Shown here in pieces: positions 5,790 through 53,911 of a stretch of DNA of 64,000 bases. Position 1 is the first letter of the stretch. Every line of letters starts with the position of its first letter. Source of the DNA: an uncultured Eggerthellaceae bacterium (GTDB lineage Bacteria; Actinomycetota; Coriobacteriia; Coriobacteriales; Eggerthellaceae); NCBI GenBank assembly GCA_934648845.1, contig CAKUFS010000010.1, forward strand, positions 327-64,326, read 5' to 3'. The notes under the pieces are model-generated. The model saw only the letters and a program-made list of their open reading frames with translations, was not told the DNA's origin and searched no databases. Made by a program: the position numbers and the translations under genes.

Positions 5790-6019
5790 TTGTTGGAAAA
5801 GCGGGTGCGAATTCGGGCAAATGCACGATACTCGGTGGTTTGGTTTTGGCTTAGCGCACTGTTGACGCAACAGTTCACAACAAAAGCAAATACCGCATTG
5901 CTGTGACCTGGGAAAATAGAAACAATAAATCGGGGAGGACCGAACAGTCCTCCCCGATTTGCATTATAGACCACCGAATATCGTCGATTTGCCCGAAATA
6001 CCGGGCGTTTTGACAACAA
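5790..6019. mobile_element. MITE-like repeat family B, copy 1 (~230 bp, ~50-nt terminal inverted repeats)
   Basis: The left end is TTGTTGGAAAAGCGGGTGCGAATTCGGGCAAATGCACGATACTCGGTGGTT. The right end is GACCACCGAATATCGTCGATTTGCCCGAAATACCGGGCGTTTTGACAACAA, its imperfect reverse complement. A second copy lies at 29099-29317. The interior carries the hairpin TCGGGGAGGAC-CGAACA-GTCCTCCCCGA. Confidence 0.7.
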
Positions 6020-6076
6020 CCCCCTTCAAATCCAGGGCGCACAAACGCAATCCCGACCGCGAAAAGCGAAAAAGCG

Positions 6077-7609
6077 TTACTGTACCAAGCATTCGTCGAG
6101 GCGCGCCTCGATTTCAGCGCGGTTCATGTCCTTGCCGATAACGACCAGCTTATTGCGGCGGTCGCCCACCGTATCATCCCAATCATCAAGGGCGTTCGGA
6201 TTCGCGTTCAAGATTGCCTCGCGCTCTTCGGGCGTGGCCGATGCGATCCACGGGCTGTTCGGCGACATATAGAAACGCTTGCCCGCCTGCTCGAACAGGA
6301 AGCACGTGTCCTCATCGTCATCAACCCAGGCCATGCCCTTGCAGCGAATGATGCTTGCCGGCCATTCGCGCACAAGCGCGCGCAAAGATTCCATGGCAAA
6401 AGGACGACGGCGCTCATACACGAATGTCGTAATGCCGTATTCCGCCACGTGATCGTGACCGTCGGCATGGTCGTGGCCGCAACAGCAAGAACCGTCCTCG
6501 TGATGGTGGTGGTGATGGCACGCGCAATCGGGATCGTCGCATTCATCATGGTCGTGACCTGCCCTTTCGCCGTTGTCGTGATCGTGATCACACGTGCACT
6601 CGTGTTCGTCGCCGTCATGGTGATGCTCATGGTGATGGTGACCGTGGCCGTCGGCTTCGTGCGTTTCCTCCACGCCGTTTTCCAGCGCATCAACCCAACC
6701 CGCGGAATCAAAAACGCTATCGAACGTAAAACAATCGGTATACAGGATCTCGTTCAACGGAACATCACCCTGAACAGCCTCGATAATGGTTGCGTCCTTC
6801 TGTAAACTGCGAATGAGCACTTTTAGCTCGGCCAGTTGCTCGGGGGTCACTTGGTCCACTTTGTTCAGGATAAGCGTGGAGCAAAACTCGATTTGGTTGA
6901 TAAGCAAGTTGGCAATGTCGTCTTCCTCGTTTGCGCTCACCAAATCCTGGCCGCCGTTGAACTCGTCAAACATACGCGCGCAGTCCACCACAGCAACCAC
7001 GTTGTCAAGCATGAGCGGCGCCTCGGAAATCTTGATTTCCGTATATTCAGCGTCGTCTTCGTAGTCGGCGTCTTCGTCTTCCGCGTAATCAGCAGGCTCG
7101 CTGCCGCTGCCGGCGTCATCGGCTTCTTCACCATCCGCAAGTTCATCATAGGGCATTTCTTCAGGGAGTTTACCTTGCGACCAATCGCAAAAATCCGAAA
7201 TAGTGTACGCAATGGGCATGGGCTCGCAAATGCCGGACGCCTCGATGATGATGTAATCGAAGTTGCCCGACTCGGCCAGTTGAGCCAGCTGAGCAGCCAG
7301 GTCCTCGGAAAGCGAGCAGCAAATGCATCCGTTCGTCATGGGAATCAGGCTGTCGGTCATCTCGGTCACCGCACCCGTTTGCGCAATGAGCTCGGCATCG
7401 ATGTTCACCTCACCGATGTCGTTCACAATAACAGCCGCGCGCACGCCTTCCGTGTTCGTGAGCACATGGTTCAGCAGCGTGGTTTTACCAGCGCCCAAGT
7501 AGCCCGTGATCATCGCAATGCGAACAGGCGGCTGCTCGGCGGCAACTTCCGCAAGCTCGCCCTGCGCGGCAGTGGTGGGCAGGGCACCTTCTTCTTTCGG
7601 TTCTTCCAT
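6077..7609 (-). CDS. COG0523/CobW-family GTPase metallochaperone with acidic and His/Cys-rich insertions
   Basis: Walker A GYLGAGKTTLLNHVL and the CxCC motif GCICCSL are present. The C-terminal domain is interrupted by HGHHHHEHHHDGDEHECTCDHDHD...CACHHHHHHEDGSCCCGHDHADGHDH. Confidence 0.88.
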   Translation of the reverse strand: MEEPKEEGALPTTAAQGELAEVAAEQPPVRIAMITGYLGAGKTTLLNHVLTNTEGVRAAVIVNDIGEVNIDAELIAQTGAVTEMTDSLIPMTNGCICCSLSEDLAAQLAQLAESGNFDYIIIEASGICEPMPIAYTISDFCDWSQGKLPEEMPYDELADGEEADDAGSGSEPADYAEDEDADYEDDAEYTEIKISEAPLMLDNVVAVVDCARMFDEFNGGQDLVSANEEDDIANLLINQIEFCSTLILNKVDQVTPEQLAELKVLIRSLQKDATIIEAVQGDVPLNEILYTDCFTFDSVFDSAGWVDALENGVEETHEADGHGHHHHEHHHDGDEHECTCDHDHDNGERAGHDHDECDDPDCACHHHHHHEDGSCCCGHDHADGHDHVAEYGITTFVYERRRPFAMESLRALVREWPASIIRCKGMAWVDDDEDTCFLFEQAGKRFYMSPNSPWIASATPEEREAILNANPNALDDWDDTVGDRRNKLVVIGKDMNRAEIEARLDECLVQ

Positions 7610-7854
7610 GGTTCCTCGATTCTGTTTCGCGGTTTTGTACGCGTAGATTATCGCAGTTTCGCGCGCGCGGCGGCAAAAAGCACGTCATTTTGGCATAATA
7701 GGCAAAGAAGGAAACGCGTGCGTCCAAACGCCGCCAAGACGATCACAAATAACGCGGTGATGGCGCGCAGACGCGGCAACCGCAAAAGCGAAACCGCACG
7801 GCATGGCAAAACGCCGCCAAACGCGAACGCGAACAAGTACAACCGAAGGAAACC

Positions 7855-8730
7855 ATGCGCCAACGAAAACCGACAAATCTGAACGTGACGCTCGAGCGCT
7901 ACCACGAGCCCATCGTCGATGAGCCTTCTGCCGTGAAGGGCAGCTGGATACGCGCGTTCATGCCCGATGCCCGCGCTCTTTACCTGGATTTGGGCTGCGG
8001 TAAGGGCATTTTCCTTGCGGAGATTGCGCAAAAACACCCGGATGTGCTGTTCGTGGGAATCGACCACAGCGACGTATGCGTTGCGCGCGCGGCGCAAAAA
8101 GTCGTTGAGCAGGAGCTTCGCAACGTGCGCTTGATTTGCGCCGACGCCGCTGATTTGGAAAACATCTTTGGCGAAGGCGAGCTTGATTTGATTTACCTGA
8201 ACTTCAATTCGCCGTTTCCCAAGAAGAAACATGCTGAAAAGCGCCTGACGCATCTTGCGCATCTTACGCGATACCGACGCTTGCTGCGCCGCGGCGGCGT
8301 GATTGAAATGCGCACCGACAATGTTCTCTATTGGGAGTTTTCCCTGGTAGAACTCGATATTGCAGGGTATGAAATTTTAGCGCAATCCGATAATTTGCAT
8401 CGCGATGCCGCGTTGCTTGACGCCACGCTGGCAAGCGAGTACGACACGCGCACCACCGAGCGCGGAGCCCGCGTACGCTGGTTGCGCGCCTTGCCAGGCC
8501 CTGAGCCTGCCACGTGCGTGCAGACCGATAAGCTGGGCTTGGCCGAGTACCTTCCCCAGGACATCGAGAACTTCCACGAGATTCCCTATGGCATGGAAGA
8601 CACCGTCGCGAACATCCGGAGCCGCCGCGCGAATGCACGAGCGCGGGCGGAACGAGAGAAGGCGCAGCAGGAAAAAGCGGTTGCGCGCGTGCAGGACGAA
8701 ACGGGAAACGCAGTCGCAAGACAAGACTGA
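7855..8730 (+). CDS. trmB: tRNA (guanine46-N7)-methyltransferase with a basic C-terminal extension
   Basis: SAM motif LDLGCGKGIF, plus NFNSPFPKKKHAEKRL and RTDN. About 60 extra Arg/Glu/Ala-rich residues sit at the C-terminus. Confidence 0.85.
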   Translation: MRQRKPTNLNVTLERYHEPIVDEPSAVKGSWIRAFMPDARALYLDLGCGKGIFLAEIAQKHPDVLFVGIDHSDVCVARAAQKVVEQELRNVRLICADAADLENIFGEGELDLIYLNFNSPFPKKKHAEKRLTHLAHLTRYRRLLRRGGVIEMRTDNVLYWEFSLVELDIAGYEILAQSDNLHRDAALLDATLASEYDTRTTERGARVRWLRALPGPEPATCVQTDKLGLAEYLPQDIENFHEIPYGMEDTVANIRSRRANARARAEREKAQQEKAVARVQDETGNAVARQD

Positions 8731-8855
8731 CAAGGCGCACGCAGAACAAAGAACTCGAAACGAAACGCAAAATAACGCATATCGGACAAAACGCGCAAAC
8801 CGAACCGCAACAAGCAAGAAAGCAAGTAAGACGAATCCAAACCAAGGAGGCCGCA

Positions 8856-8999
8856 ATGAACATCAAGCAGCAAAGAACAATGAAGCGCGCAGGAGCATGG
8901 TGCATCGTTTTTGGCACCGCGACCATTGTCACCGGCGTTGCCGTGGGCGTTGGCTGCTTGATTGCGGCGGGCAAGCTGCTGAAAAGCGCGCGTTCGTAG
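8856..8999 (+). CDS. Possible 47-aa small membrane protein
   Basis: It is below the track cutoff. The ATG is preceded by CCAAGGAGGCCGCA. Translation is MNIKQQRTMKRAGAWCIVFGTATIVTGVAVGVGCLIAAGKLLKSARS, one clear TM helix with a positive-inside N-terminus. Confidence 0.4.
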   Translation: MNIKQQRTMKRAGAWCIVFGTATIVTGVAVGVGCLIAAGKLLKSARS

Positions 9000-9198
9000 C
9001 GCATTGGACGCGACCGGCGAAGGGCGCGGAGAGCCGGATTCAGCACGCCGTCCTCTCTGGCACGCCGCCCTCCCTGGAATCATTGCGCGTAAACCGCTCG
9101 ACCGCGAAGGGCGCGAAAACCCGAAACGCAAAGCCGCGCTTTCCGGAAGCGTCGCAAGCAAAGCCGCCCACCTGAGAATATAACGAAAAGGAGCACTC

Positions 9199-10011
9199 AT
9201 GTTCAAGCTAGCCCTTGCCCAAATGGCGCACCCCGCGCACGGCAACGTTATTGCCGCCGCACGCGCCTGGGCACAAAAAGCAGCAAATGCCGGGGCGAAA
9301 CTCCTGGTATTTCCAGAATGCCTGATGACGCCGTTCGAGAAAACGCCCGAAGAATTTGCCGCATCGGCGCAACCCCTTACGGGCGACTTCGTGCAGCAGA
9401 TGTGCGCCATCGCGCGCGAAACGGGCCTGTGGATTGTTTTCACCATGAACGAGAAAAGCCCCGCTGGCGGACAGCCGTTCAATACCGCTGTGGTGACGGA
9501 CAGCAGCGGAAACGTGCGCGGTCATTACCGCAAAACGCACCTCTATGCCGCTCATGGCATTGACGAGCACGAGAAAATGGGCGAAGGATCAGCGCTCTTC
9601 GAACCCGTTGAAACACCATTTTGCACGCTGGGCCTGGGAATTTGCTACGACTTGCGCTTTCCGGAAGTCGCTCGCGACGCTGCACTTGCCAGTTGCAACG
9701 TAATGGTGTTTCCCGCTGCCTGGGTGGCTGGACCGCATAAAATACGCCACTGGGAAACGCTTCTTGCCGCGCGCGCCCTTGAAAACGAGCTGTTCGTGGC
9801 AGGCTGCTGCCGCCCCGATCGCTTATGCATTGGCCACTCGCAGATAGTTGACCCTTTAGGAGAAGTGGTGGCGCGTGCCGGCGAAGCCGAACAACTGCTC
9901 ATCGCGGATATCGACCTTCCCCAAGTGAAAAGCGCGCGCGATGCCATGCCGTGCCTTCAGCATCGTCGCCCCGAACTCTACGGATCGCTTACGCAGCAGG
10001 TTAAAAAGTGA
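9199..10011 (+). CDS. Carbon-nitrogen hydrolase (nitrilase superfamily, omega-amidase-like)
   Basis: The Glu-Lys-Cys triad contexts are LLVFPEC, HYRKTHLY and GLGICYDLRFPE. The RBS is AAAAGGAGCA. Confidence 0.85.
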   Translation: MFKLALAQMAHPAHGNVIAAARAWAQKAANAGAKLLVFPECLMTPFEKTPEEFAASAQPLTGDFVQQMCAIARETGLWIVFTMNEKSPAGGQPFNTAVVTDSSGNVRGHYRKTHLYAAHGIDEHEKMGEGSALFEPVETPFCTLGLGICYDLRFPEVARDAALASCNVMVFPAAWVAGPHKIRHWETLLAARALENELFVAGCCRPDRLCIGHSQIVDPLGEVVARAGEAEQLLIADIDLPQVKSARDAMPCLQHRRPELYGSLTQQVKK

Positions 10012-10113
10012 CGGGGTCTTTTTCACCTCGGCGAATAATCGGAGCAGGACCTTTTTCACCTTTCTCGCAGCAACAAGCAATCAAGAAACCGGAAAGTACG
10101 TAGGAATAGAACA

Positions 10114-11154
10114 ATGAACAGCGAAAACACAGCGCCGAATATCAAAACGACCACTGAAGCGCCCACCCCTGAGGCAGCCCAAACCGCAGAGCGCGCTGAC
10201 GCCGATAAGACACCTGTCGCCAACGAAGAGGTAATGAGCCGACTGCCCGCATTCTTGGAACCCGAGCTTCGCGCAACATACGGCGACGATGCCGATTGCA
10301 TCTTGAACGGCTATGCTCAAACGCGCCCCACCACGTTGCGCGCAAACACGTTGCGAGCAACAAAAGACCAAGTTGCAGCCCAGCTTTCCGCCGAAGGCTT
10401 CTCTTATCAGGGCGTTGATTGGTATCGCGACGCGTTCATTTTGGATGAAAACCCCAACGCAAACTTGTGGGACAGCGCGCTCATCAAAGAAGGGCTTGTC
10501 TACGTGCAAAGCCTTTCGTCCATGCTGCCGCCGCTGTTCATGCGCCTGAGCGCGGGTATCGAAGTGCTTGACATGTGCGCGGCGCCGGGCGGAAAGACCA
10601 CACAGCTTGCCGCGCTTTTGCAGGGCTCGGCGCATATTGCGACCTGTGAGCAAAATACCGTGCGCGCCGACAAATTGGAGTTCAACCTGCGCAAACAAGG
10701 CGCAGAAAACGTTGCTATCATGCGCCAGGACGCGCGCCGCCTTGACAGCTTCTTCTCGTTCGATCGCATACTTTTGGACGCACCGTGTTCGGGGTCGGGC
10801 ACGCTGAACATTCACGACCCCAAGTTGGGAAAACGATTCTCCGAAGCGCTCGTGAAGGACTCTTGCAAAAAGCAAGCAGCACTGTTGGCAAAAGCGCTTG
10901 AAATCGTAAAGCCAGGCGGCGTGGTGCTGTACTCCACGTGCTCGGTGCTCAAGCGCGAAAATGAAGACATTGTTTCCGCCGCGCTGAAGAAAGCGGCGAA
11001 GAAGGGGCGCTACATTATTGACGCGCTGGATGCGGAAACGCTTGCACAGCAAGGCGTGCCGCTGCTGCCTTCGACCATTGAAGGCGCTGTGACCGTTTGC
11101 CCCACCGAGCTGTACGAGGGCTTCTTCATGTGCCGCATCGCCCGCATGGCGTAG
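10114..11154 (+). CDS. RsmB/RsmF (NOL1/NOP2/Sun) family RNA cytosine-C5 methyltransferase
   Basis: Motifs LDMCAAPGGKTT, ILLDAPCSGSGT and VLYSTCSV are present. The first ~40 residues are low-complexity, so the true start could be Met41 (10234). Confidence 0.82.
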   Translation: MNSENTAPNIKTTTEAPTPEAAQTAERADADKTPVANEEVMSRLPAFLEPELRATYGDDADCILNGYAQTRPTTLRANTLRATKDQVAAQLSAEGFSYQGVDWYRDAFILDENPNANLWDSALIKEGLVYVQSLSSMLPPLFMRLSAGIEVLDMCAAPGGKTTQLAALLQGSAHIATCEQNTVRADKLEFNLRKQGAENVAIMRQDARRLDSFFSFDRILLDAPCSGSGTLNIHDPKLGKRFSEALVKDSCKKQAALLAKALEIVKPGGVVLYSTCSVLKRENEDIVSAALKKAAKKGRYIIDALDAETLAQQGVPLLPSTIEGAVTVCPTELYEGFFMCRIARMA

Positions 11155-11324
11155 GCGTCCCCGCAGCGCGCCCTCGGACGCGTCGGACGCAACGGGCGGG
11201 ACGGAGCAGCCACGGCAGGCACAATCGCCGCGCTGCACCTGCGCGTCGCAACCATCTGCGCGTCGCAACCAGGCGTAGCATCGCAGACGCCACGCAGCAC
11301 TAAAACCGCGCAACCGCCACACCC

Positions 11325-12032: not shown

Positions 12033-12197
12033 ACGCCATCCTTTATTCCTAGATATTTGCTGGTATTTCGCTAATTACCGTGCAATGCGCTCTCAATTTC
12101 GTAGGTATGTTACCATTCATCAGCGAAAAACTGTACAGAAATGCGGCGCGCCCGGCAATTGCGCGTCCCACGAAACAGCCCGGAAAGGGAACCCCCC

Positions 12198-13157
12198 ATG
12201 GAAAAAGAACTCTTGATTTTGGTACCGTTCAAAGAACACCATATGGAACAGATTCGCGCAGCGGCAGGCGATCAACTGGTCGTGCGCCATTTTCCCCAGG
12301 GGCTTTCGGGTGCAGAAGCAACCGAAGCGCTTGCCACCGCCACCGTCGTTGTTGGAGAGCCCGAAGCAGAAGACATTGCCGCAAGCAACACTGTGCAATG
12401 GGTGCAAATGACCTGGGCCGGAACCGATAAATACACGCGCAGCGGCAAACCGTTCCCCGCCAGCGTGCAGCTGACGAACGCCGTGGGAAGCTACGGGCAC
12501 ACTATCTCGCAATACGCGCTGGGCCAGGCGCTTTCCATTTGCCAGAACCTGGGGCGTTACGCGAAGCATCAGGCAAGCGAGCAGTGGCATGACTTGGGGG
12601 GAATCGAAACGCTCGAAGACGCAACCGTACTTATCTTTGGCGCGGGAGACATTGGAAGCCATTGCGCAAAACGCTTTGCGGGCTTCGATGCGCACATTAT
12701 TGGCGTATGCCGTTCAACTGAGGCAAAGCGCCCGTACTTCGACGAACTCTGCACGCTTGAGCAGGCAGAACAGTTCATCCCCCAAGCCGATGTCATTATC
12801 GGCGCCATTCCCAACAACGATGCCACCGCTGGCTATTTCGACGCGCGCCGCTTAGCACTGTGCAAGCCAAGCGCTGCGTTGGTGAACGTAGGGCGCGGCA
12901 ATTTCATCGATTGCCTGGCGCTTGATGCCGCCCTTTCCGCAGGTCAACTGCGCGGTGCAGCACTTGACGTTACCGATCCCGAACCGCTTCCGGAAAAACA
13001 CCCCTTGTGGCAACAAGAGCGCTGCCTGATAACGCCGCACTGCTCGGGCGGTGCTTTCGGACGCCTGCCAGAGACTGAGCAGCATATCTGCGACTTGACC
13101 TGCGAGAATATTCGCCGATTCATTGCCGGTCAACCGCTCAAAAACCGCGTGTTTTAA
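12198..13157 (+). CDS. D-isomer-specific 2-hydroxyacid dehydrogenase family protein
   Basis: NAD motif GAGDIGSHCAKRFAGF, plus VNVGRGNFID, DVTDPEPLP and TPHCSG. The start is set at ATG 12198 (MEKELLILVPF) after GGAAAGGGAACCCCCC. Confidence 0.85.
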   Translation: MEKELLILVPFKEHHMEQIRAAAGDQLVVRHFPQGLSGAEATEALATATVVVGEPEAEDIAASNTVQWVQMTWAGTDKYTRSGKPFPASVQLTNAVGSYGHTISQYALGQALSICQNLGRYAKHQASEQWHDLGGIETLEDATVLIFGAGDIGSHCAKRFAGFDAHIIGVCRSTEAKRPYFDELCTLEQAEQFIPQADVIIGAIPNNDATAGYFDARRLALCKPSAALVNVGRGNFIDCLALDAALSAGQLRGAALDVTDPEPLPEKHPLWQQERCLITPHCSGGAFGRLPETEQHICDLTCENIRRFIAGQPLKNRVF

Positions 13158-13399
13158 GCCGCGCAAGAACGAGGGGTCGCAGCGAAAAACGAACTTTGCC
13201 GACTGGTGCACCGCGCGGCACGTCATTGTAGTCCGCCTCTGCCCCTTGCGACCCCTCGTCTTCCCGACCCTCGACCCTTGCCCCCCCTGCACCTGCTCCT
13301 TCGCCTCATCCCTTTAGCCGCCCCCTTCGACTTGACCCTTTCAACCTTTCCCCTAATCCCTTCGCTCACGGCTCCCTTGCCACTCCTCTCCAGCAGCCG

Positions 13400-13521
13400 T
13401 GATAAAAATGGGGTACTTTTCTGTGGGTTTGCCAAGGCTTACTTTTTCGCGACCTGGGGAAACGCTGATTTTTCACGCACACGAAGACGAAAATCCACAG
13501 AAAAGTGGGTCGTTTTTATCA
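13400..13521 (+). mobile_element. MITE-like repeat family A, copy 1 (122 bp)
   Basis: TGATAAAAATGGGGTACTTTTCTGTGGGTTT ... AAATCCACAGAAAAGTGGGTCGTTTTTATCA are imperfect ~31-nt terminal inverted repeats. The same element recurs at 17308, 18911 and 39919. Confidence 0.75.
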
Positions 13522-17307: not shown

Positions 17308-17429
17308 TGATAAAAATGGGGTACTTTTCTGTGGGTTTGCTACAGCTTATTTTTTCACGACCTGGGGAAACGTTGAAGGATCAGAAAAACAAAGGCAAAA
17401 ATCCACAGAAAAGTGGGTCGTTTTTATCA
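17308..17429 (+). mobile_element. MITE-like repeat family A, copy 2 (122 bp)
   Basis: It has the same ends and core as 13400-13521. Here the flanks make CATGATAAAAA ... TTTTTATCATG. Confidence 0.75.
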
Positions 17430-17550: not shown

Positions 17551-18513
17551 ATGGATAACGTTTACTTGGGATACGACACCGCATGGTGGTATTGGAGCAA
17601 CGCGAAAAACGCGCCGAAAACGCTGGCGACAGCAGGAAGGAGCGATCGCTTGACAGATTGCGCCGTGAACCAGCGTGCTGTGCTTGATGCAGTGGGCGGT
17701 AGCGCTGTTCTTGCTAACCGGCACCTTTCTGTTCTTGTGGATAAGAAATCGATTACCAGCACAAAAAGAGTTGCTTTTCATCATAGTCCAACGCTGTTTC
17801 CCGATGGCTCATTTATCCAGCTTGCTCCCAGCATCTGCATCGCTTCACCCGAATTGAGCTTTCTGCAGTGCGCGGCAAATAAATCCCTGGTGAACACCAT
17901 GGAATACGGATTTCAACTTTGCGGCACCTTTGTCCCCGATGCCGCATCGAAGCACGGCGTGGCATCGCGGCCTTCCCTTACCAGCGCGGATAAACTGTCA
18001 GCGTTTCTTGATGAATGCAATGGGATGCGTGGCGTTTCGACTGCTCGCAAAGCGCTTATTTATGTGCTCAACGGAAGCGCTTCGCCGCGTGAAACCGCCG
18101 TATCGCTTCTGCTGACCCTTCCGTTGCGTATGGGAGGTTACGCCCTGCCATCGTTTGCCATCAATCATGAGCTGGCCGTCCCAAAAGAGCTGCAGGGGCT
18201 CACTCGTCGCAGGTCGCTGCGTGCTGATTTTTTCTGGAAAAACGCCTGCGTAGCGGCGGAGTACGATAGCGACATTGCACATCTGGGATCAGAGGAGCTT
18301 TGCAACGATGCAACGAAACGCATTGCCCTTCATCGGATGGGGTACACAACATTTGCTTTTACGCGTGTGCAAGTTGACAGCCTGATCCTTATGGACGAAA
18401 GCGTGGCGGCTCTTCGCCGCGAACTCGGAATCCGCATGCCTCAGCGCCTTCCCGTCGATTATCGAGCAAAACAAGCTGAACTGCGAAAACAACTAGGACT
18501 ACCATTCTTCTAG
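17551..18513 (+). CDS. DUF559 / Vsr-like endonuclease-fold domain protein, paralogue 1
   Basis: The C-terminus ADFFWKNACVAAEYDSDIAH...RIALHRMGYTTFAFT matches the D..vEyDG..H...D..R...L...G pattern of DUF559. It shares ASPELxFL, ELCGT/QLCGTF and LNGSASxRE blocks with 29493-30566. The start is moved to ATG 17551, because the first 46 codons of the track ORF lie in repeat A2. Confidence 0.7.
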   Translation: MDNVYLGYDTAWWYWSNAKNAPKTLATAGRSDRLTDCAVNQRAVLDAVGGSAVLANRHLSVLVDKKSITSTKRVAFHHSPTLFPDGSFIQLAPSICIASPELSFLQCAANKSLVNTMEYGFQLCGTFVPDAASKHGVASRPSLTSADKLSAFLDECNGMRGVSTARKALIYVLNGSASPRETAVSLLLTLPLRMGGYALPSFAINHELAVPKELQGLTRRRSLRADFFWKNACVAAEYDSDIAHLGSEELCNDATKRIALHRMGYTTFAFTRVQVDSLILMDESVAALRRELGIRMPQRLPVDYRAKQAELRKQLGLPFF

Positions 18514-18910
18514 CGACCATTCCGCCTGCTTGGTCGAGCCAGAGCGCGTCAACAGAGATATCACGGCAAATTACCATGAGCGTTGGTGCGCACCCTTCAG
18601 ATAATCGAAAACACCGTCGCAGCGACTGCACGTCATCGATGCTCGTTGAACGACCCATGCCCCATCCCCCACGATGAACGTTCGACGGAGCATGCGCCCC
18701 ATGCCTTCTCCGTCATCCGCATTTCCCCAGTTCGAGCTTCATTCTTCCTTCAAACCGTTCGCGCACAATCAGACTCCTTGACTTTCCACCTTCGTGCCCG
18801 AACCCTCCCTGCCACCTTTCCGTGGGCCTGTTCTGACATTCTTCGCCTTGACCTTCCGTCTTCACGTCCCGCGCCTTCTCCGCCACCAGGTGTCTTCGCG
18901 CCGCGCGTCG

Positions 18911-19032
18911 TGATAAAAATGGGGTACTTTTCTGTGGGTTTACCACAGCTTACTTTTTCACGACCTGGGGAAACACTGAAAAATCAGGAAAGCGAAGGCA
19001 AAAATCCACAGAAAAGTGGGTCGTTTTTATCA
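18911..19032 (+). mobile_element. MITE-like repeat family A, copy 3 (122 bp)
   Basis: It has the same element and orientation as copy 2. It is followed by two further partial CGTTTTT(A/G)TCA ends at about 19141 and about 19202. Confidence 0.75.
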
Positions 19033-19288
19033 TGGGGGAAATCGGACAGAGGACGAAAGGGGGCAATGCGAAGGAACGGACGGAAAGGTACCGTTGGATT
19101 GTCATCAAGAAAAGTAGGCGAAGGAACAGAGGGTAGGCATCGTTTTTATCACGAGAGAAGAAATCGGAAGGAAGCAGGCGAAGGGACAGAAGGACTGACA
19201 CCGTTTTTGTCATTAGGAATAGAAAAGAACGAAAAGAAGAAGTTGGTCTGATATTCTCAGGCAACAATCGGGTCGATAGAGGATCGGC

Positions 19289-21762: not shown

Positions 21763-21847
21763 AATCCCTTCTTTCTTTCTGCAGCGCTAACTGCGGTTTT
21801 AGTCTCTGAAGAGGGATAAAGCAGGCACCACGATGCCGCACAATCAA

Positions 21848-21965
21848 CCCCAGCTCTGTCCTTTAGCCTGAGAGATTCGGCGGCCAACCTGCGTGGGCGG
21901 CTCACCTTGCACCTTCGGCACTCATTCAAGAGTTCTCCAGAGCTTCCTCCGCACTCTGTTTCTCC
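21848..21965 (-). promoter_or_regulatory. Glycine riboswitch, single aptamer
   Basis: The minus strand reads GCTCTGGAGAACTCTTGAATGAGTGCCGAAGGTGCAAGGTGAGCCGCCCACGCAGGTTGGCCGCCGAATCTCTCAGGCTAAAGGACAGAGC. This carries the conserved CUCUGGAGA, GCCGAAGG.GCAA and AAUCUCUCAGGC.AAAGGACAGAG blocks of Rfam RF00504, closed by a GCTCTG/CAGAGC P1 stem. Confidence 0.85.
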
Positions 21966-26438: not shown

Positions 26439-26539
26439 GCGAAGGGCTGAGCCGAACTGCGACGCTTTGGATAAGTTGAGCGAGCCGCAAGTGAGAGGAA
26501 GCATTATCCAAGCGGAGTCGTGAGGTGAATGCCCTTCGC
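26439..26539. repeat. Long-hairpin intergenic repeat family C, copy 1 (~100 bp)
   Basis: GCGAAGGGCTGAGCCGAACTGCGACGCTTTGGATAAGTTGAGCGAGCCGCAAG...GAAGCATTATCCAAGCGGAGTCGTGAGGTGAATGCCCTTCGC. The outer stems (GAAGGGC/GCCCTTC) and inner stems (TTGGATAA/TTATCCAA) are complementary. Copies also lie at 39761 and 62024. Confidence 0.7.
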
Positions 26540-26837
26540 GCCCTTGCGCTCCGCATCTATTCCCTTTCGCCGGCAGCCTCTTCCCCATCAGCCGCTTACC
26601 GCCGCCAAGCGCCGCTTGCGGCAGAGCAACCCCGCCATTTGTGGAGCTTTCCGAATCTTCGCAAGAAATTCCTTACACAAGACCAAGACAATCCCTAAAC
26701 TAACAGGGTTTGACCGTCGGGCAAGACGACCTGGTCAACCAACTTTCGCGAACTCTTTCGCAGTTTTTTCTCTTCGAAAAAACAATAACCATACCAATAG
26801 CAATTATATAGAGACGCACATTTGAAACGAGGTATTT

Positions 26838-28974: not shown

Positions 28975-29098
28975 GCAGCCACACGCGGCCCTCTTGCGAC
29001 CCTTTTCGTAGCCCCTCTTGCGGCCCGCTCCGTAACTCCTCTCGCAGCTCTCTCGCAGCCCGCTCCGTAACTCCTCTCGCGACGCTCTCGCGGCCCGC

Positions 29099-29317
29099 TT
29101 GTTGGAAAACCGAGGGTAGATTCGGGCAAATGCACGATAATCGGTGGTTCGGGAATCAAGCGCCATAAACTACATCGAGCAGAAACAGAGCTGACCTGGG
29201 CTTTTACTGAAGACTCTTTCCAGATTGGAACAGATTCGCCAAAAACACCCCCGAAATCCAGACTTCGACCACCGAATATCGCCGATTTGCCTGAATTCGA
29301 GGGTCGTTTTCCAACAA
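29099..29317. mobile_element. MITE-like repeat family B, copy 2 (~219 bp)
   Basis: The left end is TTGTTGGAAAACCGAGGGTAGATTCGGGCAAATGCACGATAATCGGTGGTT. The right end is GACCACCGAATATCGCCGATTTGCCTGAATTCGAGGGTCGTTTTCCAACAA. The ends match copy 1 and the interior is diverged. Confidence 0.7.
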
Positions 29318-29492
29318 GCACTTCCTACTCCAGCCGCTTTTGCACTCCTTGATAGCATTTTGTCAACCAATAAGCTCTTTTTGATAGCTTTTTGATAGCG
29401 AACTCGCTCCTTTTGCTGGTTTCTTGTCAACAGCGCAGCGCATGATAAGCAAAGCACTTCAAGCTTATCCACGCATTCGCAAGGGGACCGCC

Positions 29493-30566
29493 ATGACAGC
29501 ACCGCGTATATTTATCACCCACCAATCGGCCTGCAAGTACTGGATCCATCGGGACTTATATGAAACACACGAATCACGAGCCAAGCCAGCCGATGCAGAC
29601 ACGCAAAGCGCTCTGGCGCTTAAAGATGCGCGCTCATTGATTATCGGGCTTAGTGAGCACGAGCCTTTGCACGTGACCGTCTCCGACACTACGAATCAGC
29701 ACCCCATCCACAACGCTGCAATCCATTATCGAAGCATCCCCTACCCCGATTGGTCGTTTCGCCGAATACGCCCCGATGTCTTTGTAGCAAGCCCCGAACT
29801 TTGCTTTCTGAATGCAGCAACTATCCTGCCTTTCAACGCCCTTGTCCTTTACGGGATGGAGCTATGCGGAACGTATGCAAGAACAGAAAGCATCTACGAC
29901 TCCCCGCATGCAAACGAAATCGGAGACGCAGGAATCACGAGCGAGTTTCAGCACGCAAACGCGGCAAGCGACTATTCGAGCGCAAACCCCGCTCGATATA
30001 AAAGAAACCCTCTCACTACCGTACAAAAAATCGAGGCCTATCTAGACAAATCGGAAGGAACAGCCGGAATCAAAACCGCAAGACAAGCTTGCAGGTATCT
30101 TTTGAACGGCTCGGCATCGGCACGGGAATCTGTTCTTGCAACAATAATGATGCTCCCGCCGCGCTTGGGCGGGTTCGGCATGCCGGCTCCGAACCTCAAT
30201 TATGGCATTGAGGTCAACTTGCTCAGCAAAATATGCGCTGGTCAGAAAATCACCCTGCACGGAGATATCGTATGGCGCTACGCAAGACTCGTGGTTGAAT
30301 ACGACGGTCTTCAACACGGAATAGCAGACAACCACAGCGTTGACAAGCAGCGCGACCACCTGCTCCTTGAGGCGGGATACGAAGTGGTTCGATTCACCGA
30401 TAAGTCCATAAGAAGCGGTCTTGAGCTGGAACGACTGGCGCGCACTATAAATCGAAAAGCCCATTTACGCCGGCCCGCAAGCGCTCTGCAGTGGGATACC
30501 AGAAAAGAACGAACTCTTGATGAGCTGCTTTTCCACAGCGACCCACCGTGGATTCAACATCCATAG
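29493..30566 (+). CDS. DUF559 / Vsr-like endonuclease-fold domain protein, paralogue 2
   Basis: The C-terminus is GDIVWRYARLVVEYDGLQHGIADNHSVDKQRDHLLLEAGYEVVRFTD. It shares blocks with 17551-18513. The start is set at ATG 29493 after AAGGGGACCGCC. Confidence 0.72.
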   Translation: MTAPRIFITHQSACKYWIHRDLYETHESRAKPADADTQSALALKDARSLIIGLSEHEPLHVTVSDTTNQHPIHNAAIHYRSIPYPDWSFRRIRPDVFVASPELCFLNAATILPFNALVLYGMELCGTYARTESIYDSPHANEIGDAGITSEFQHANAASDYSSANPARYKRNPLTTVQKIEAYLDKSEGTAGIKTARQACRYLLNGSASARESVLATIMMLPPRLGGFGMPAPNLNYGIEVNLLSKICAGQKITLHGDIVWRYARLVVEYDGLQHGIADNHSVDKQRDHLLLEAGYEVVRFTDKSIRSGLELERLARTINRKAHLRRPASALQWDTRKERTLDELLFHSDPPWIQHP

Positions 30567-39760: not shown

Positions 39761-39872
39761 GCGACGGCAAGGGAATGAGCCGACGTGCGACGCTTTGGAT
39801 AAGTTGAGCGAGCCGCAAGCTCGAAGAAGCATTATCCAAGCGGAGCCCGCTCGGCGAATCCCTTGCCGTCGC
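39761..39872. repeat. Long-hairpin repeat family C, copy 2
   Basis: GCGACGGCAAGGGAATGAGCCGACGTGCGACGCTTTGGATAAGTTGAGCGAGCCGCAAGCTCGAAGAAGCATTATCCAAGCGGAGCCCGCTCGGCGAATCCCTTGCCGTCGC. Confidence 0.7.
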
Positions 39873-39918
39873 CGGACAACCCCGAATCGCCAAAAAGTGG
39901 CGGAGTCTTTCCGCCCTC

Positions 39919-40040
39919 TGATAAAAACGGCCCACTTTTCTGTGGGTTTGCCATAGCTTACTTTTTTGCGACCTGGGGAAATGTCGATTTTTAGCGATTG
40001 CAAGAAAGGAAATCCACCGAAAAGTGGGTCGTTTTTATCA
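39919..40040 (+). mobile_element. MITE-like repeat family A, copy 4 (122 bp, most diverged)
   Basis: TGATAAAAACGGCCCACTTTTCTGTGGGTTTGCC…GCGACCTGGGGAAATG…AAATCCACCGAAAAGTGGGTCGTTTTTATCA. Confidence 0.7.
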
Positions 40041-40103: not shown

Positions 40104-40136
40104 TTGTTGACAAAAGGTGGGGTAATTTGTCAACAA
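40104..40136. repeat. 33-nt palindrome D, copy 1
   Basis: TTGTTGACAAA-AGGTGGGGTAA-TTTGTCAACAA has a perfect 11-bp stem and an 11-nt loop. It lies 6 nt from the stop of the recN remnant. Confidence 0.8.
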
Positions 40137-41977: not shown

Positions 41978-41979
41978 CG

Positions 41980-42758: not shown

Positions 42759-42791
42759 TTGTTGACAAAAGGTGGGGTAATTTGTCAACAA
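42759..42791. repeat. 33-nt palindrome D, copy 2
   Basis: It is identical to copy 1 and lies 6 nt from the recN stop codon. Confidence 0.8.
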
Positions 42792-42797
42792 ACAGCG

Positions 42798-47605: not shown

Positions 47606-47704
47606 AGAGTTCCTTCCCAACGATATTGTTTTTATCGTTTCGCAGTATAGCCGAAGCAAGCCAGATTGCAGCCGCTCGAGAGCGCGTAAAAAACGAAAGG
47701 GCGC

Positions 47705-47832
47705 TTAATTGGTTGGCTGCGCGGCCACGCGCGCATCCGCCTGAGCTTCGGCCACGGGACAGCCCGCAAACGCGTCGGACTCCATGCCCCGCAGGGCGCG
47801 TCCACGTCCAGCATCTCGCCCGCCGCAGTCAC
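47705..47832 (-). pseudogene. Chimeric remnant: flavoprotein 3' end fragment fused to the 3' end of the LRR_5 gene
   Basis: The minus strand encodes …AAGEMLDVDAPCG (compare 51133-52623, …FAAGEMLDVDAPCGG). In another frame it continues as GMESDAFAGCPVAEAQ… (compare 50372-51109, …GMEPDAFVGCPVAQTQ). Confidence 0.7.
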
Positions 47833-47840
47833 GCCAGCTA

Positions 47841-50105: not shown

Positions 50106-50371
50106 AGAGCCCCTTCCCCTTCTTTTTCAGCAATAGTTTTTATCGCATTGCAGTATAGCAAAGGAACGCGCAAACACGAGCCACCGCACTTTAACCTGCA
50201 CGCACGGCTCGGAAGCGGTTGTTTGCTTTCGGCGCATCGTGCGCACGAAGCAACTTGCGTTTCGGCATACCCAGCGCGCACGTATGACATAGGAGTGGTT
50301 GTCCGCGTTTCGATGCGCGCGTTGCGCAAAGCCGCCTGCGTTTCAGAACGCACGGTCGCCCGTCTGGCAGC

Positions 50372-51109
50372 TTATTCGTTTTCCTGCGTCTGCGCCACAG
50401 GGCATCCCACAAACGCATCGGGCTCCATGCCCTGCACGGCATCGGACATGGTCACGCGCGCCAGACGCGTGCAGCCCGCAAACGTGCGCTCTTCAATGTA
50501 GGAAATCTCATCGGGCAAATCGATACCCTCAAGGCTCGTGCAGTTTTCAAAGCACCGGCGACCAATCCAACCCACCGAAGCAGGAAGCTCAACGGCCGCA
50601 AGCGCTGCGCAATTCGCGAACACTTCGTCTTCCAACGTGTCAAGCGTCTCCGGCAAAACCACTTCGCGCAGGCGCGCGCAATCACGAAACGCTGCATTGC
50701 CCAGAATACGCACGCCATCAGGTATTTCAACACGCTCAAGACCGCGACACCCTTTGAATGCCTCATCCCCCACACGCTCGACTCCGCACGGCAGCGCTAC
50801 CGATGAAAGCGCGTTGCAGCGCTGAAACGCCTTGGAGCCAATCTCGCGCACGCCTTCCGGAAACACGATTTCGCGCAAACCTGTGCAGCCGGAAAACGCG
50901 CCGTCCTCAATGACTTCAAGCGTAGAGGGCAGCTGCACTTCTTTGAGCTGCATGCAGGCGTTGAACGCAAACGCGCCAATGCGGCGCACGCCTTCCGGGA
51001 TAATCAGGCGCGACAGCATGAACTTGTTCGTGAAGACGCGCGGCGCAATGTCGGTTACGCCGGGGGGAATGCACACCACCGCTTCGTCGTCGTGATAGGC
51101 ATTCAGCAT
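50372..51109 (-). CDS. Leucine-rich-repeat (LRR_5 / BspA-like) protein without a signal peptide
   Basis: The start is set at ATG 51109 (MLNAYHDDEAVVCIPPGV…). It has about nine ~23-aa repeats of the form IPxGVxxIGxxAFxxCxxLxxVxLP. Confidence 0.75.
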   Translation of the reverse strand: MLNAYHDDEAVVCIPPGVTDIAPRVFTNKFMLSRLIIPEGVRRIGAFAFNACMQLKEVQLPSTLEVIEDGAFSGCTGLREIVFPEGVREIGSKAFQRCNALSSVALPCGVERVGDEAFKGCRGLERVEIPDGVRILGNAAFRDCARLREVVLPETLDTLEDEVFANCAALAAVELPASVGWIGRRCFENCTSLEGIDLPDEISYIEERTFAGCTRLARVTMSDAVQGMEPDAFVGCPVAQTQENE

Positions 51110-51132
51110 AATATCGAAGCTTGACACGCCTT

Positions 51133-52623
51133 CTACCTGGCCTTTCTTTGGTTTTTGAAGGTAGTGGCGGCGGCAGAAGCGCCCGCCAACGTGCCGCTCG
51201 CCCACGCCCAGTGCAAGTTGTACCCGCCGCAGGGCGCGTCCACGTCCAGCATCTCGCCCGCCGCGAACAGCCCCGCATACTGCTTGCACTCCATGGTGGT
51301 CGCATCGAACGCTTCGCACAAGAAGCCGCCGCAATGCACCTGGCACTGCTTGGGGTCACCCGCACCTTCTACGGCAACCTTGAAGCGCTTTGCCACGCGC
51401 GACAGACGATACATGTTCTGCGCCGATGCAGGGTCTTCCGGCCGCAGCTTGAGCGTTTTCAGCAGCGCCTCGGCCACCAAGGGAAGCATCATGCCGCGCG
51501 TAATATCCTGACACGCGGCTTCCCTGCCACTCAGTGCGCGCGTGGCGGCGGCGCGTTCATGCAGGTAGGATTGCAGTTCATCCCTGGTCATGTCGGGGAA
51601 CAGGTCAAGTGCCACCGTATCACCCGGCTGAGCGAATCGCGAGAGGTTGAATATCGCAATGCCCGAAAGCCCGTATTTGCGGAACAGCACTTCGCCGCGC
51701 TCCTGTGCTAGCGGCGCGCCATCGCGCTCAAGGGCAGCCTGGCAACGCACACGAATGTTATCCAGCGCGCGGATGTCGCGCGTGTCGGTTTTCAGCGGGC
51801 CAAGCACGGACCTTGCAGGCGCATACGGCAAGTCGCTGGGAAGAAGCTCGCGCGCAACGGAGCCACCAACAGCGCAAATGACCTGGTGCGCGCGCTGAAA
51901 CGACCCATCGGCCATGCGCAACGTGTACGGTTTTCCCGGCGCGCGCGGCGGCTCGACGGAGCGCACGCGCATGTTGCAGCATTCTTTGACACCCAGTCCT
52001 TGTGCGGCAGCGCGCAGCACATCAAGAACAGTCGAGGCTTTACCTGTTATGGGGAAAAGACGGCCTTCTCCTTCTTCGCGCCAACAAAGACCCAAGCCGG
52101 CGAAGAAATCGAGGACGGCATTTTGCGTCTGCTGACCAGCGGATGCACATGAGCGCGGCCAAAATGCCGCCTCTTCAAGAGCGGCAAGAGATGCACCCAC
52201 GAACGCAGCATTCTGGTAGAGACCGTTTGAGATCACGGCGTTCGAGAAATTGCAGCGACCATTGCCCGTTGCCAGAATCGAGCGTCCCACGCGGTCGTCT
52301 GCCTCGAACAGCGCGATGTTCGCAGGGCGAACGCCCGCGACCGAACGGGAGGTTGCGGCGGCATTGTCAACAGCCGCACGACAAGCCGCAACTTCGTTGG
52401 AGCCCGCACTTGTGCCGGCACCAACGTCTGCTGCAGCGTGCACGATGGCATCGGCACCTGCGCGGGCAGACGCGCTGACACTTGCATCGCCGGCGCCTGC
52501 ACAAGCGCCTGCAACATCTTCCCCGTCCAGCGCGCGGCACTTCCATGCGGCAGAAATGGCGGCCGCCAAACCAGCTGCGCCGCCACCAATGATGATCACA
52601 TCGTATGTTTCGTTTTCGTTCAT
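51133..52623 (-). CDS. HI0933/BaiN-like FAD-dependent oxidoreductase (aminoacetone-oxidase family) with a low-complexity insertion
   Basis: The start is set at ATG 52623 (MNENETYDVIIIGGGAAGLAAA, GxGxxG). The C-terminus is GEMLDVDAPCGGYNLHWAWASG. About 70 aa of A/G/D/S insert follow the dinucleotide-binding motif. Confidence 0.82.
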   Translation of the reverse strand: MNENETYDVIIIGGGAAGLAAAISAAWKCRALDGEDVAGACAGAGDASVSASARAGADAIVHAAADVGAGTSAGSNEVAACRAAVDNAAATSRSVAGVRPANIALFEADDRVGRSILATGNGRCNFSNAVISNGLYQNAAFVGASLAALEEAAFWPRSCASAGQQTQNAVLDFFAGLGLCWREEGEGRLFPITGKASTVLDVLRAAAQGLGVKECCNMRVRSVEPPRAPGKPYTLRMADGSFQRAHQVICAVGGSVARELLPSDLPYAPARSVLGPLKTDTRDIRALDNIRVRCQAALERDGAPLAQERGEVLFRKYGLSGIAIFNLSRFAQPGDTVALDLFPDMTRDELQSYLHERAAATRALSGREAACQDITRGMMLPLVAEALLKTLKLRPEDPASAQNMYRLSRVAKRFKVAVEGAGDPKQCQVHCGGFLCEAFDATTMECKQYAGLFAAGEMLDVDAPCGGYNLHWAWASGTLAGASAAATTFKNQRKAR

Positions 52624-52759
52624 GCGCTTATGATACCACGCGCCGCCCTTCAGCCCTGCAAAGCAACGCAACGGACCTCCCTTGATTATGCAGGAGATTA
52701 GGCAGACCCTGCATCCGAAGAATAAGTCGATACGGACCGCCCTTGGTAGCGCGGGAGTT

Positions 52760-53077
52760 TTACCTGATAAGCACCGCCCAATTTCGCTTCTTGTAGGAAA
52801 TTCTATCGATGCACACGACACCCGATTGTTCGTCCACGCGAAAAAAAGCCATGTAGTTGCCGAATTCCGCCCAGCGATAACCCGCCGATGCAGTAATTTC
52901 ATCACGCACGAAAGGATACGTTGAAGCAAACGATTCAAGCCTATCAACAAGCTCGTCAAAAGAATCAAGGAGCTGCCGAGCAGCAGAAGCGTTCGAAAGG
53001 GAGAACGTTATATACCGCACCGCCGAACTCAAATCATCGGAGGCTTTTTGTGTCACAAAAACGCGAAAGGCACTCAC
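52760..53077 (-). CDS. Type II toxin, RelE/ParE superfamily
   Basis: 105 aa. It overlaps the antitoxin stop by 4 nt. It has the typical size and the …YRWAEFGNYMAFFRVDEQSGVVCIDRISY… beta-core pattern. The patch is AT-richer. Confidence 0.75.
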   Translation of the reverse strand: MSAFRVFVTQKASDDLSSAVRYITFSLSNASAARQLLDSFDELVDRLESFASTYPFVRDEITASAGYRWAEFGNYMAFFRVDEQSGVVCIDRISYKKRNWAVLIR

Positions 53078-53334
53078 AATCCCAGCTCCTGACGCAATTG
53101 CAACGATGCATCGCGAGCAGATACAACGCGTCCCTCTTCAGCATCCCTTCTGCCCTGCATGAGAAATTCGTAGAAGTCAAGGCGCGCACGCAACTGCTCA
53201 TAGCTATCAACACCCATTATGGCCAAATCGCCATTGCCGTTTCGCGTGACAATCATCGGCTCGCTGTCCACATGACATTGCTCGGATATCTCACTGTAAT
53301 TGTTACGCAGAACCGTGCTTGAAATTACACGCAT
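53074..53334 (-). CDS. Type II antitoxin, Phd/YefM family
   Basis: The start is set at ATG 53334 after AAAGGAGGCGAATCGAT. MRVISSTVLRNNYSEISEQCHVDSEPMIVTRNGNGDLAIMGVDSYEQL is a classic Phd/YefM N-terminus. Confidence 0.82.
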   Translation of the reverse strand: MRVISSTVLRNNYSEISEQCHVDSEPMIVTRNGNGDLAIMGVDSYEQLRARLDFYEFLMQGRRDAEEGRVVSARDASLQLRQELGL

Positions 53335-53629
53335 ATCGATTCGCCTCCTTTGTCGTGTTCTGAAGATTATCTTACCATATTTCTTTAGATATTGCCAATT
53401 GTCCCTTTTAGCAACAGTTGATACAAGGTGAAGTAAGGATGAGCAACAAGCGCGGTGAGAAGATATACATCGCCGCGCTGCGACAGCTCGTCGGGTGCAA
53501 CGAGGCATATTTCGGCGACGCCGCGAGAAGCCTCCAGTCGAAGGGATACGTCGAGGGCTTCGCAATCCCCGCTTCTCTCGGAAAGTGTCGAATTGCGACC
53601 GTGTTGTCGGAAAAATGGCTTCGATGTGC

Positions 53630-53784
53630 AAAATATTCCTGTTCGGGGTAGGTTAAAGGGACATCGATCCCCGTTCGCCTTTCACTTGCTGTTCGCGACC
53701 TGGGCTTTTGCGAATCAGCATCAGCTTAAACAGCGCTATCCGGACCACAAATGCTTCCCAAGGTACCCCGAACAGGAATATTTT
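53630..53784. mobile_element. MITE-like element E (155 bp) with perfect 21-bp terminal inverted repeats
   Basis: AAAATATTCCTGTTCGGGGTA at 53630-53650 has its exact reverse complement TACCCCGAACAGGAATATTTT at 53764-53784. The interior carries CGACCTGGGCTTTT. Confidence 0.65.
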
Positions 53785-53906: not shown

Positions 53907-53911
53907 TTCAA

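Follow-up and report, generated by a model that had tools for sequence, protein, structure and literature searches.

Many arm families of short intergenic repeats, among them A, B and E, are arranged around one invariant core, the octamer GACCTGGG. Sequence comparison places this core under purifying selection at individual loci. We favour, with moderate confidence, the interpretation that the elements belong to a REP/BIME/Correia-like superfamily of hairpin-capable repeats, in which the common box is a putative recognition site for a lineage-wide factor.

A common octamer in three repeat families

The window, that is the whole 64,000-nucleotide stretch analysed, contains GACCTGGG 14 times, compared with 1.18 matches expected from dinucleotide shuffles, none of which (0/100) reached 14. 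Seven of these matches are coding, arise from the common codons GAC-CTG-GGN and lie in long ORFs outside the element system, at 12410–12417 (+), 15449 (–), 23855 (–), 32677 (+), 34635 (+), 35879 (–) and 59500 (–). The other seven, starting at 5905, 13451, 17359, 18962, 29193, 39970 and 53697, all on the plus strand, occupy a fixed place within an inverted-repeat element. The first-pass annotation had listed these seven sites with A- or T-rich tails, and both the sites and the tails (GAAA, AAAA or CTTT) exist as it quoted them; its coordinates were within 1–2 nt, and it overlooked the coding matches. The uniform plus orientation of the window elements is a local feature.

Family A has imperfect 31-nt arms. 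Copy A1 (13400–13521, +; octamer 13451–13458; TGATAAAAA...TTTTTATCA) sits between convergent genes. A2 (17308–17429, +), A3 (18911–19032, +) and A4 (39919–40040, +) carry their octamers at 17359–17366, 18962–18969 and 39970–39977. The 52-nt inverted-repeat arms of family B are found in B1 (5788–6021, +) at 5788–5843 and 5969–6021, and enclose a centre with the core octamer tgtGACCTGGGaaaat (5905–5912, +) and a bidirectional terminator-like hairpin (5927–5960). B1 is located between convergent pdf and cobW-like genes and has orthologous copies in two other species. In B2 (29097–29320, +), arms at 29097–29152 and 29267–29320 flank the octamer at 29193–29200. The E copy (53601–53813, +; octamer 53697–53704) combines inner 33-nt arms (53623–53655 and 53761–53793) with shared outer ends, GTGTTGTCGGAAAAA and GAAAAAGCGACAAC; at the orthologous site, one species has an E element and another has an E' cassette in inverted orientation. 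A, B and E are short, non-coding, multi-copy units with terminal inverted repeats, a feature they have in common with MITEs.

Genome-wide, we counted 76 copies (A, n=20; B, n=30; E, n=26), all of them intergenic; among the 66 with an assigned gene context, 30 lie between convergent, 23 between tandem and 13 between divergent genes. The octamer keeps a constant position amid variable centres, and is exact in 52 copies, with one mismatch in 22 and two in 2. Family A has it exact in 18/20 copies and as AACCTGGG in 2, family B exact in 15/30, with one mismatch in 13 and two in 2, and family E exact in 19/26 and with one mismatch in 7. Further copies thus mostly retain the motif to within one mismatch (74/76), the exceptions being two B copies.

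The octamer is also a common word. The genome holds 226 matches against 38–113 expected under Markov models of orders 1–5, an order-6 model predicts 188 of them, and 148 are coding, mostly GAC-CTG-GGN. The remaining 78, however, fall within only 348 kb of non-coding DNA, a density 2.9 times higher. Genome frequency accounts for the coding hits but not for those in elements, which show a fixed offset in each family. We also dropped a Chi/KOPS-like, replication-oriented word, as the orientation relative to GC skew (37:25) is not significantly biased.

One box in many arm families across the Eggerthellaceae

The conserved unit extends beyond the octamer to a box of about 15–26 bp, W5-6 S Y GACCTGGG S W3 Y G C. 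Around 20 further non-coding matches in the genome share this extended box, many of them within a fourth arm family, E'. Its 13-mer GACCTGGGSTTTT is present in 98/151 Eggerthellaceae genomes and 43/64 genera, whereas a reversed-pattern control gave at most one match per genome; outside the order, the 13-mer occurs at chance level. Box loci number about 80–100 per genome, and 1–60 in most Eggerthellaceae.

Of 80 matches sampled from other genera, 76 are non-coding, and most of these lie within inverted repeats that are unrelated in sequence. With a minimum length of 14 nt, inverted repeats enclose the box in 43/76 cases in other genera versus 2/380 shuffled flanks, and in 49/74 cases in this genome versus 0/370. 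The arms differ wholly between families and between genera. The idea, raised in the first-pass annotation, of a superfamily of small elements with a common motif is therefore strongly supported and extends across the family Eggerthellaceae, and the in-situ selection on the octamer described below adds to it. Our literature search found no paper on this motif or on such repeats in Eggerthellaceae.

Conservation at orthologous loci

In the 13 pairs of orthologous elements that we compared between three species, 104/104 octamer positions are unchanged and identity over the 14-nt core is 0.945, compared with 0.90–0.92 in the arms, 0.71–0.74 in the centres and 0.82–0.88 in the flanks; the 40–60 nt to either side of the box change at the neutral rate or faster. 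Concerted evolution could explain the conservation of the arms without selection, but it cannot explain a core of 8–14 nt within diverged centres. As the octamer stays unchanged site by site while the neighbouring DNA decays, these elements appear to be an undescribed, functional class of intergenic repeats.

These comparisons also bear on whether the octamer is merely a frequent word, found in the repeats by coincidence or by inheritance from one ancestral copy. Its abundance in coding DNA would fit such an origin, and yet its position is fixed in at least four arm families here and in dozens elsewhere, and about 29 changes would be expected if the orthologous octamers evolved as fast as the centres around them. 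Together with the near-zero reversed control and the shuffled-flank test of the bracketing inverted repeats, the ortholog conservation refutes this explanation, to which we assign a negligible probability.

Possible roles of the box

Under the recognition-site interpretation, the box would act in cis and be recognised by a single trans-acting factor that the whole bacterial family shares, most probably a protein that reads double-stranded DNA. The arms would serve as a frame for pairing or structure. The elements would favour gene 3' ends, like REP/BIME or Correia elements with a central host-factor site, and recombination through shared ends may have spread the copies and swapped or flipped their inner cassettes. 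Comparison of orthologous sites shows that inner cassettes can be replaced or inverted with the outer ends retained. The A/T tracts that flank the core may be A-runs or T-runs, interchangeably, which fits recognition of double-stranded DNA; combined with the flat pairing profile around the box and arm-stem mismatches that show no general excess of G:T over A:C (77:80 in family B), this favours duplex DNA over RNA as the substrate. What is unusual for this interpretation is the perfectly invariant and asymmetric 8-mer, which is atypical of an architectural protein such as IHF.

As a tentative extension, an unrecognised machine that works at the level of the chromosome may bind or cleave the boxes. 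The host would then maintain the elements throughout the family as a system for regulation or architecture, and they would not be decaying selfish DNA. The boxes could be strong sites of the topoisomerase/gyrase type, or sites that organise domains, where gene ends converge; alternatively, a recombinase acting in trans could flip and swap cassettes of about 200 bp.

The repeats could instead act as RNA, either co-transcribed with their neighbours or as small RNAs, in which case the arms would pair into a long stem and an RNA-binding protein or RNase would recognise or process the box as a single-stranded site, much as RNase III processes Correia/NEMIS hairpins. The arms do fold as long stems with strongly negative energies and compensatory changes, and several centres contain a terminator-like hairpin just downstream of the box. 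Moreover, stem mismatches on the motif strand are mostly G:T in family A (47:7 versus A:C) and mildly G:T-biased in family E (41:23), and copies in tandem contexts lean towards the sense orientation (16:7). The family A excess and the sense lean keep an RNA-level role in consideration, but we regard it as a minority possibility: the 16:7 split is not significant, family B lacks a wobble bias, the box can point either way with respect to the E and E' outer ends, and A- and T-runs interchange next to it. The loop or conserved hairpin context suggested in the first-pass annotation did not hold up either, as pairing probability around the octamer is flat and RNAalifold yields, besides the arm stem, just one weak local stem of 5 bp; a conserved RNA hairpin loop is thus not supported. 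In Rfam 15, 13 box loci gave nothing at E≤1 apart from a chance snoRNA match. The Rfam 15 matches within the window are FMN and glycine riboswitches only.

A role of the box as a cleavage, crossover or accessory site of an enzyme that moves, flips or exchanges cassettes, such as a REP-associated transposase of the Y1/HUH type that works on hairpins, or some recombinase, appears unlikely, although several observations point towards it. The genome has a single Y1 transposase-like gene (38.8 bits on PF01797), whose only NCBIfam match is 'REP-associated tyrosine transposase' (62.7 bits), and a 33-nt palindrome, D, with about 90 copies, is found on both sides of this gene in three species. The stems of D (TTGTTGACAAAA) are similar to the B/E termini (CTTGTYGGAAAA) and its loop (AGGTGGGGTAA) is similar to the box; in a sister species, the loop of the flanking palindrome includes TGACCTG. 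The replacement and inversion of cassettes between conserved outer ends, and a centre that differs at one orthologous B site, are likewise compatible with such an enzyme. However, the box and the RAYT-like gene do not co-occur: the 13-mer is found in 34/52 genomes with the gene and in 64/99 without it (65% in both), and large expansions exist without the gene (21 copies in G086, 16 in G140). In five other genera, the gene-flanking palindromes are unrelated to the box-bearing arms and lack the box. We thus rejected RAYT as the partner of the box across the 151 genomes. Palindrome D flanks the RAYT-like gene in the manner of a REP/REPIN in the three species, and the A, B and E arms do not. Neither a clean empty site, a target-site duplication nor an empty outer hairpin was found, and none of the 13 orthologous pairs shows an inversion. 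In the single case of absence, at locus C2_10443 of G050, the element is missing via an indel of about 430 nt with microhomology and not as a precise empty site; in a second lineage without E, the entire spacer is non-homologous. All arm matches pair within 450 nt, and no autonomous partner with the same ends and a transposase was detected. The assembly has no multi-copy transposase or other multi-copy protein family, which is weak evidence since metagenome assemblies can lose IS copies. A phage or plasmid origin was dropped after BLAST of E and B gave no match.

Arms that serve as recombination sites, with the oriented box as part of a promoter or directional signal flipped on and off, would fit the 170–250 bp between the inverted repeats, a size known from invertible promoters such as the Bacteroides and fimS switches. 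With respect to their asymmetric outer ends, E and E' copies have the box facing both ways (about 17 to 11), two paralogous copies with centres about 90% identical have opposite orientations, and one orthologous site is inverted between species. That inverted ortholog also has another arm family, which indicates replacement and not a simple flip. An orientation check on strain contigs returned ten contigs, all from the lineage without E at that locus. We consider such a switch quite improbable, as no sigma-70-type -10/-35 pair fits the box on either strand, nearly half of the copies (30/66) lie between convergent genes with no gene for a promoter to drive, the box orientation in the G058 family is fixed relative to a 2+1 arm architecture, and no inversion occurs among the 13 orthologous pairs. 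A promoter reading as such was rejected, since neither strand has a -10/-35 at constant distance and the box logo shows neither TANNNT nor TTGACA at a fixed distance. Inspection of the tail variants by eye led us to drop sigma-54, ECF and SigB/F-type promoters and a frameshift heptamer, since the GAAA, CTTT and GTTT tails are incompatible with each. A small ORF (Asp-Leu-Gly) was likewise discarded by eye, with in-frame stops close upstream in several copies.

The box also holds CCTGG, a Dcm-type CCWGG site, and the Caulobacter CIR elements, for whose GANTC such a role was proposed, set a precedent for repeats methylated at their centre (PMC2229807). Vsr-like DUF559 genes adjoin A2/A3 and B2. 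Still, a methylation or modification site is very improbable, given that all eight bases and the flanking positions are conserved, far past CCWGG, and that just 2–3 of the 6 DUF559 paralogues are close to elements, for which reason we also rejected these genes as a partner.

Comparison with known repeat systems

Most of what is known of small palindromic repeats between genes (REP, BIME, Correia, ERIC) comes from Proteobacteria, where the ends are conserved. Here, in a major human-gut family of Actinomycetota, the ends change freely and one central box of 8–15 bp is fixed, constant over more than 40 genera. A fixed box under selection points to a putative factor that recognises this sequence at about a hundred places on the chromosome in some genomes, and a single oligonucleotide offers a simple handle on it. 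The repeats also account for many assembly breaks and for spurious ORFs in Eggerthellaceae metagenome-assembled genomes.

E. coli REP/BIME include the IHF-binding RIP/RIB form and the gyrase-binding BIME-2. Like the elements described here, they consist of inverted palindromic units whose short linker can carry a protein site (a putative one in our case), favour gene 3' ends and convergent gaps, and undergo concerted evolution. However, in BIMEs the REP hairpins are conserved and the linkers fall into few motif types, whereas here the arms vary without limit around a constant box, and the centres are long (100–170 nt) and hypervariable. The single-copy RAYT-like Y1 gene flanked by palindrome D is the defining RAYT/REP arrangement, and the B/E termini resemble the D stem. 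In contrast to REPIN-RAYT systems, the A, B and E arms are not beside the gene, the box is independent of it across 151 genomes, and the gene-flanking REPs of other genera lack the box.

Gut Bacteroidales invertible promoters, many copies of which per genome are served by a trans-acting enzyme, resemble our elements in having inverted repeats around some 150–250 bp and in being seen in both orientations, but differ in that our box has no promoter consensus and the elements are mostly at gene 3' ends. To our knowledge, classical IHF is not expected in Actinomycetota. The repeats share with Neisseria Correia/NEMIS elements a length of 100–250 bp, a non-coding intergenic location, terminal inverted repeats and long hairpins. 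The 155-bp Correia form has an IHF site in its interior (PMC2229807), and the counterpart of this host-factor site here would be the box, as a putative site only. Correia elements, however, form a single family that has the same two ends throughout and a TA duplication, while we observe dozens of unrelated arm families with one invariant asymmetric box, and found no target duplication. Caulobacter/Brucella CIR repeats, which have a central CcrM (GANTC) site (PMC2229807), are similarly intergenic with a short conserved sequence in mid-repeat; their site is a known palindromic methylation site, whereas the Eggerthellaceae box is asymmetric and longer.

Word frequency and genomic distribution

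The octamer GACCTGGG occurs 14 times in the 64-kb window (C10:327-64326; source assembly 2.24 Mb, 54.6% G+C), against 1.18 matches expected from dinucleotide shuffles. All seven sites quoted by the first-pass annotation were recovered on the + strand (5905, 13451, 17359, 18962, 29193, 39970 and 53697), with A- or T-rich tails as stated there, and the remaining 7 of the 14 matches lie inside long ORFs. Genome-wide, 226 matches were counted, where Markov models of order 1–5 predict 38–113. Coding sequence holds 148 of them, GAC-CTG-GGN being a common codon string, and the other 78 fall within just 348 kb of non-coding DNA. Word frequency therefore accounts for the coding matches but not for those within repeats, in keeping with the earlier view that the shared octamer was unlikely to be coincidence.

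Profile searches of the whole genome collected 20 copies of family A (~122 nt), 30 of family B (220–250 nt, with 52-nt arms) and 26 of family E (~172 nt between 33-nt arms, or ~213 nt once the outer ends are counted in). The motif first noticed in seven window copies is kept in place in the further ones: it is exact in 18/20, 15/30 and 19/26 copies, respectively, one base off in 22 and two bases off in 2, and its offset from the left arm is constant in every copy. In B and E, conservation is limited to the arms and to a box, a longer stretch around the octamer, on either side of which 40–60 nt vary freely among copies. About 20 of the 27 other non-coding octamer matches carry the same extended box, and a fourth arm family, E', includes many of these. 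Aligned on the octamer, the box consensus reads W5-6, S, Y, GACCTGGG, S, W3, Y, G, C. AAA and TTT are equally frequent in the W3 tract of this genome, and the upstream W tract is an A-run or a T-run, uncoupled from the W3 choice.

All 76 copies of A, B and E are intergenic, in convergent (30), tandem (23; 16 sense, 7 antisense) or divergent (13) gene contexts, and their neighbours are ordinary housekeeping genes. At five loci, E and A copies lie 50–270 nt apart (C2:69316-69664, C13:30502-31073, C14:4883-5450, C68:2426-3066 and C11:473-1041), suggesting that repeats have hot spots or form composite clusters, as BIMEs do. Long C/T-rich tracts lie to the left of A copies (window 13301-13399 and 18801-18910), and to the right of A3 (window 19040-19260) are G/A-rich tracts in which pieces similar to CGTTTTTATCA recur; they could be incomplete A arms that have degenerated. 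Related sequences are from uncultured Eggerthellaceae, in genomes put together from Hadza gut metagenomes. In related metagenome-assembled genomes, contigs start or stop exactly at A elements (G050:C96, G132:C142 and G132:C206), so A repeats break assemblies. Two DUF559 paralogues with a Vsr-like endonuclease fold (window 17551-18513 and 29493-30566) adjoin A2/A3 and B2; the one by A2/A3 appears inverted with respect to the right flank in a sister species, where contigs are broken. The window also contains an FMN riboswitch (56974-57149, + strand) and a glycine riboswitch (21846-21950, − strand), both above the Rfam gathering threshold.

Conservation and spread of the box

Thirteen orthologous pairs were compared, from ten loci of this genome and their counterparts in two sister species. 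The octamer, or its local one-mismatch variant, is identical at 104/104 positions. Identity is 0.945 for the 14-nt core, 0.90–0.92 for the arms, 0.71–0.74 for the centres (the variable sequence between the arms) and 0.82–0.88 for the flanks, which are partly coding. At the rate of the adjoining centres, ~29 octamer changes would be expected, against 0 observed. Concerted evolution could be the source of arm conservation, but it cannot account for the 8–14 nt core, which forms an island within diverged sequence. The box is therefore under constraint locus by locus. Read from these alignments, such constraint argues for a function that would matter in place.

For cross-genome scans we used the 13-mer GACCTGGGSTTTT, which was found in 98/151 Eggerthellaceae genomes and 43/64 genera; a reversed control pattern gave at most one match per genome in the same scan. 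Genomes mostly have 1–10 copies; the 13-mer is expanded to 28–37 copies in this genus and to as many as 58 in three others. When sampled across the class, it occurs in 23/25 Eggerthellaceae and has up to four copies in another family of the same order; outside the order no excess over chance was found.

We fetched 80 box matches from other genera for inspection. Four are coding and the rest intergenic, most of the latter sitting between inverted repeats unrelated to A, B, E and one another. Under a strict criterion (the box enclosed by an inverted repeat of 14 nt or longer), 43/76 non-coding boxes of other genera and 49/74 of this genome are bracketed, compared with 2/380 and 0/370, respectively, in shuffled-flank controls. 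One complete genome carries ~18 elements in which the box, always in the same orientation, lies between copies of GAGTTATGCACCC, two direct and one inverted. The proposal of a superfamily of small elements sharing a motif is supported and greatly extended.

Two genera share a single-copy box that is followed by ~80 nt of conserved sequence (L166 2883-3027 in G058; L167 in G114). It precedes the start codon of a 157-aa gene of no known function by 36–48 nt, with nrdR, dUTPase and a MerR-family gene as neighbours, and may represent the box in an ancestral or a regulatory form.

Turnover of the elements

The terminal sequence CTTGTYGGAAAA is common to B, E and E'. E and E' have asymmetric outer ends, against which the box is oriented either way (about 17 copies one way and 11 the other); a pair of copies whose centres are ~90% identical lie in opposite orientation. 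The window's E locus is occupied by E in one sister species; in the other, outer ends and flanks are the same, the cassette is E' and its box is inverted. At a further locus, species differ in the B centre, and a third one is missing ~430 nt including the element, an absence without a precise empty site. From these swapped and inverted cassettes between shared ends, we infer that cassettes turn over by recombination through those ends. Target duplication was looked for at the elements and not found, and cut-and-paste transposition of the classical kind would be hypothetical.

A second small palindromic repeat family, TTGGATAAGTTGAGCG...GCATTATCCAAGCGGAG (window 26439-26548, 39767-39876 and 62056-62136), is without the box and is often found beside copies of A or E; a sister species has an insertion of it at the orthologous E locus.

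Recognition of the box

The elements may have a role at the RNA level. Their arms fold into long stems with compensatory differences, and stem mismatches lean to G:T on the motif strand in family A (47:7) and likewise in E (41:23). However, the orientation of the box relative to GC skew (37:25) is not significant, and the conserved hairpin or loop suspected at first pass did not hold up: pairing probabilities predicted around the box show a flat profile, and the only local stem is a weak 5-bp one proposed for family E. This flat pairing, the lack of a matching Rfam family, the unbiased mismatches of B stems (77:80) and the interchangeability of the A/T tracts beside the box together favour a putative recognition of the box on duplex DNA.

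A minor rival would link the box to a RAYT (REP-associated tyrosine transposase) system. The genome encodes one Y1/HUH protein (261–278 aa, C-terminal HTH), which matches Pfam Y1_Tnp and whose sole NCBIfam match, 'REP-associated tyrosine transposase', is below the model cut-off. In three species, the 33-nt palindrome D lies to either side of its gene, the only Y1/HUH transposase-like gene of the genome, a classic RAYT/REP arrangement (C62:3063-4167 in this genome). D (TTGTTGACAAA-AGGTGGGGTAA-TTTGTCAACAA) has ~90 copies genome-wide, including window 40104-40136, 42759-42791 and 60872-60904 and a truncated copy near 53911. Its stem is similar to the B/E termini and its loop AGGTGGGGTAA to the box, and in a sister species the loop of the gene-flanking palindrome contains TGACCTG. 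Yet 52/151 genomes have a homologue of the gene, and the share that carries the 13-mer is 65% whether or not the gene is there; the palindromes beside the gene in five further genera are unrelated to the box-bearing arms and lack the box. The RAYT/D system is therefore treated as a separate finding. Homologous genes in other Eggerthellaceae genera are bracketed by their own palindromes, many with GGGGAC.

Overall, the mechanism narrows to a putative site for a sequence-specific trans factor, read most likely on DNA.

Comparison with known repeat elements

A literature search found no papers describing these elements, and no phage or plasmid records containing them were found. BIME/RIP elements have inverted ends and a host-factor site in their interior, an arrangement that the box elements resemble. 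Correia/NEMIS elements are built alike, with inverted ends and an interior host-factor site (PMC2229807), and Caulobacter CIR repeats also have a notable site at their centre, there for methylation (PMC2229807). What is new here is that the conserved part is reversed: the ends are endlessly varied, and one asymmetric box is constant family-wide and under selection in situ.
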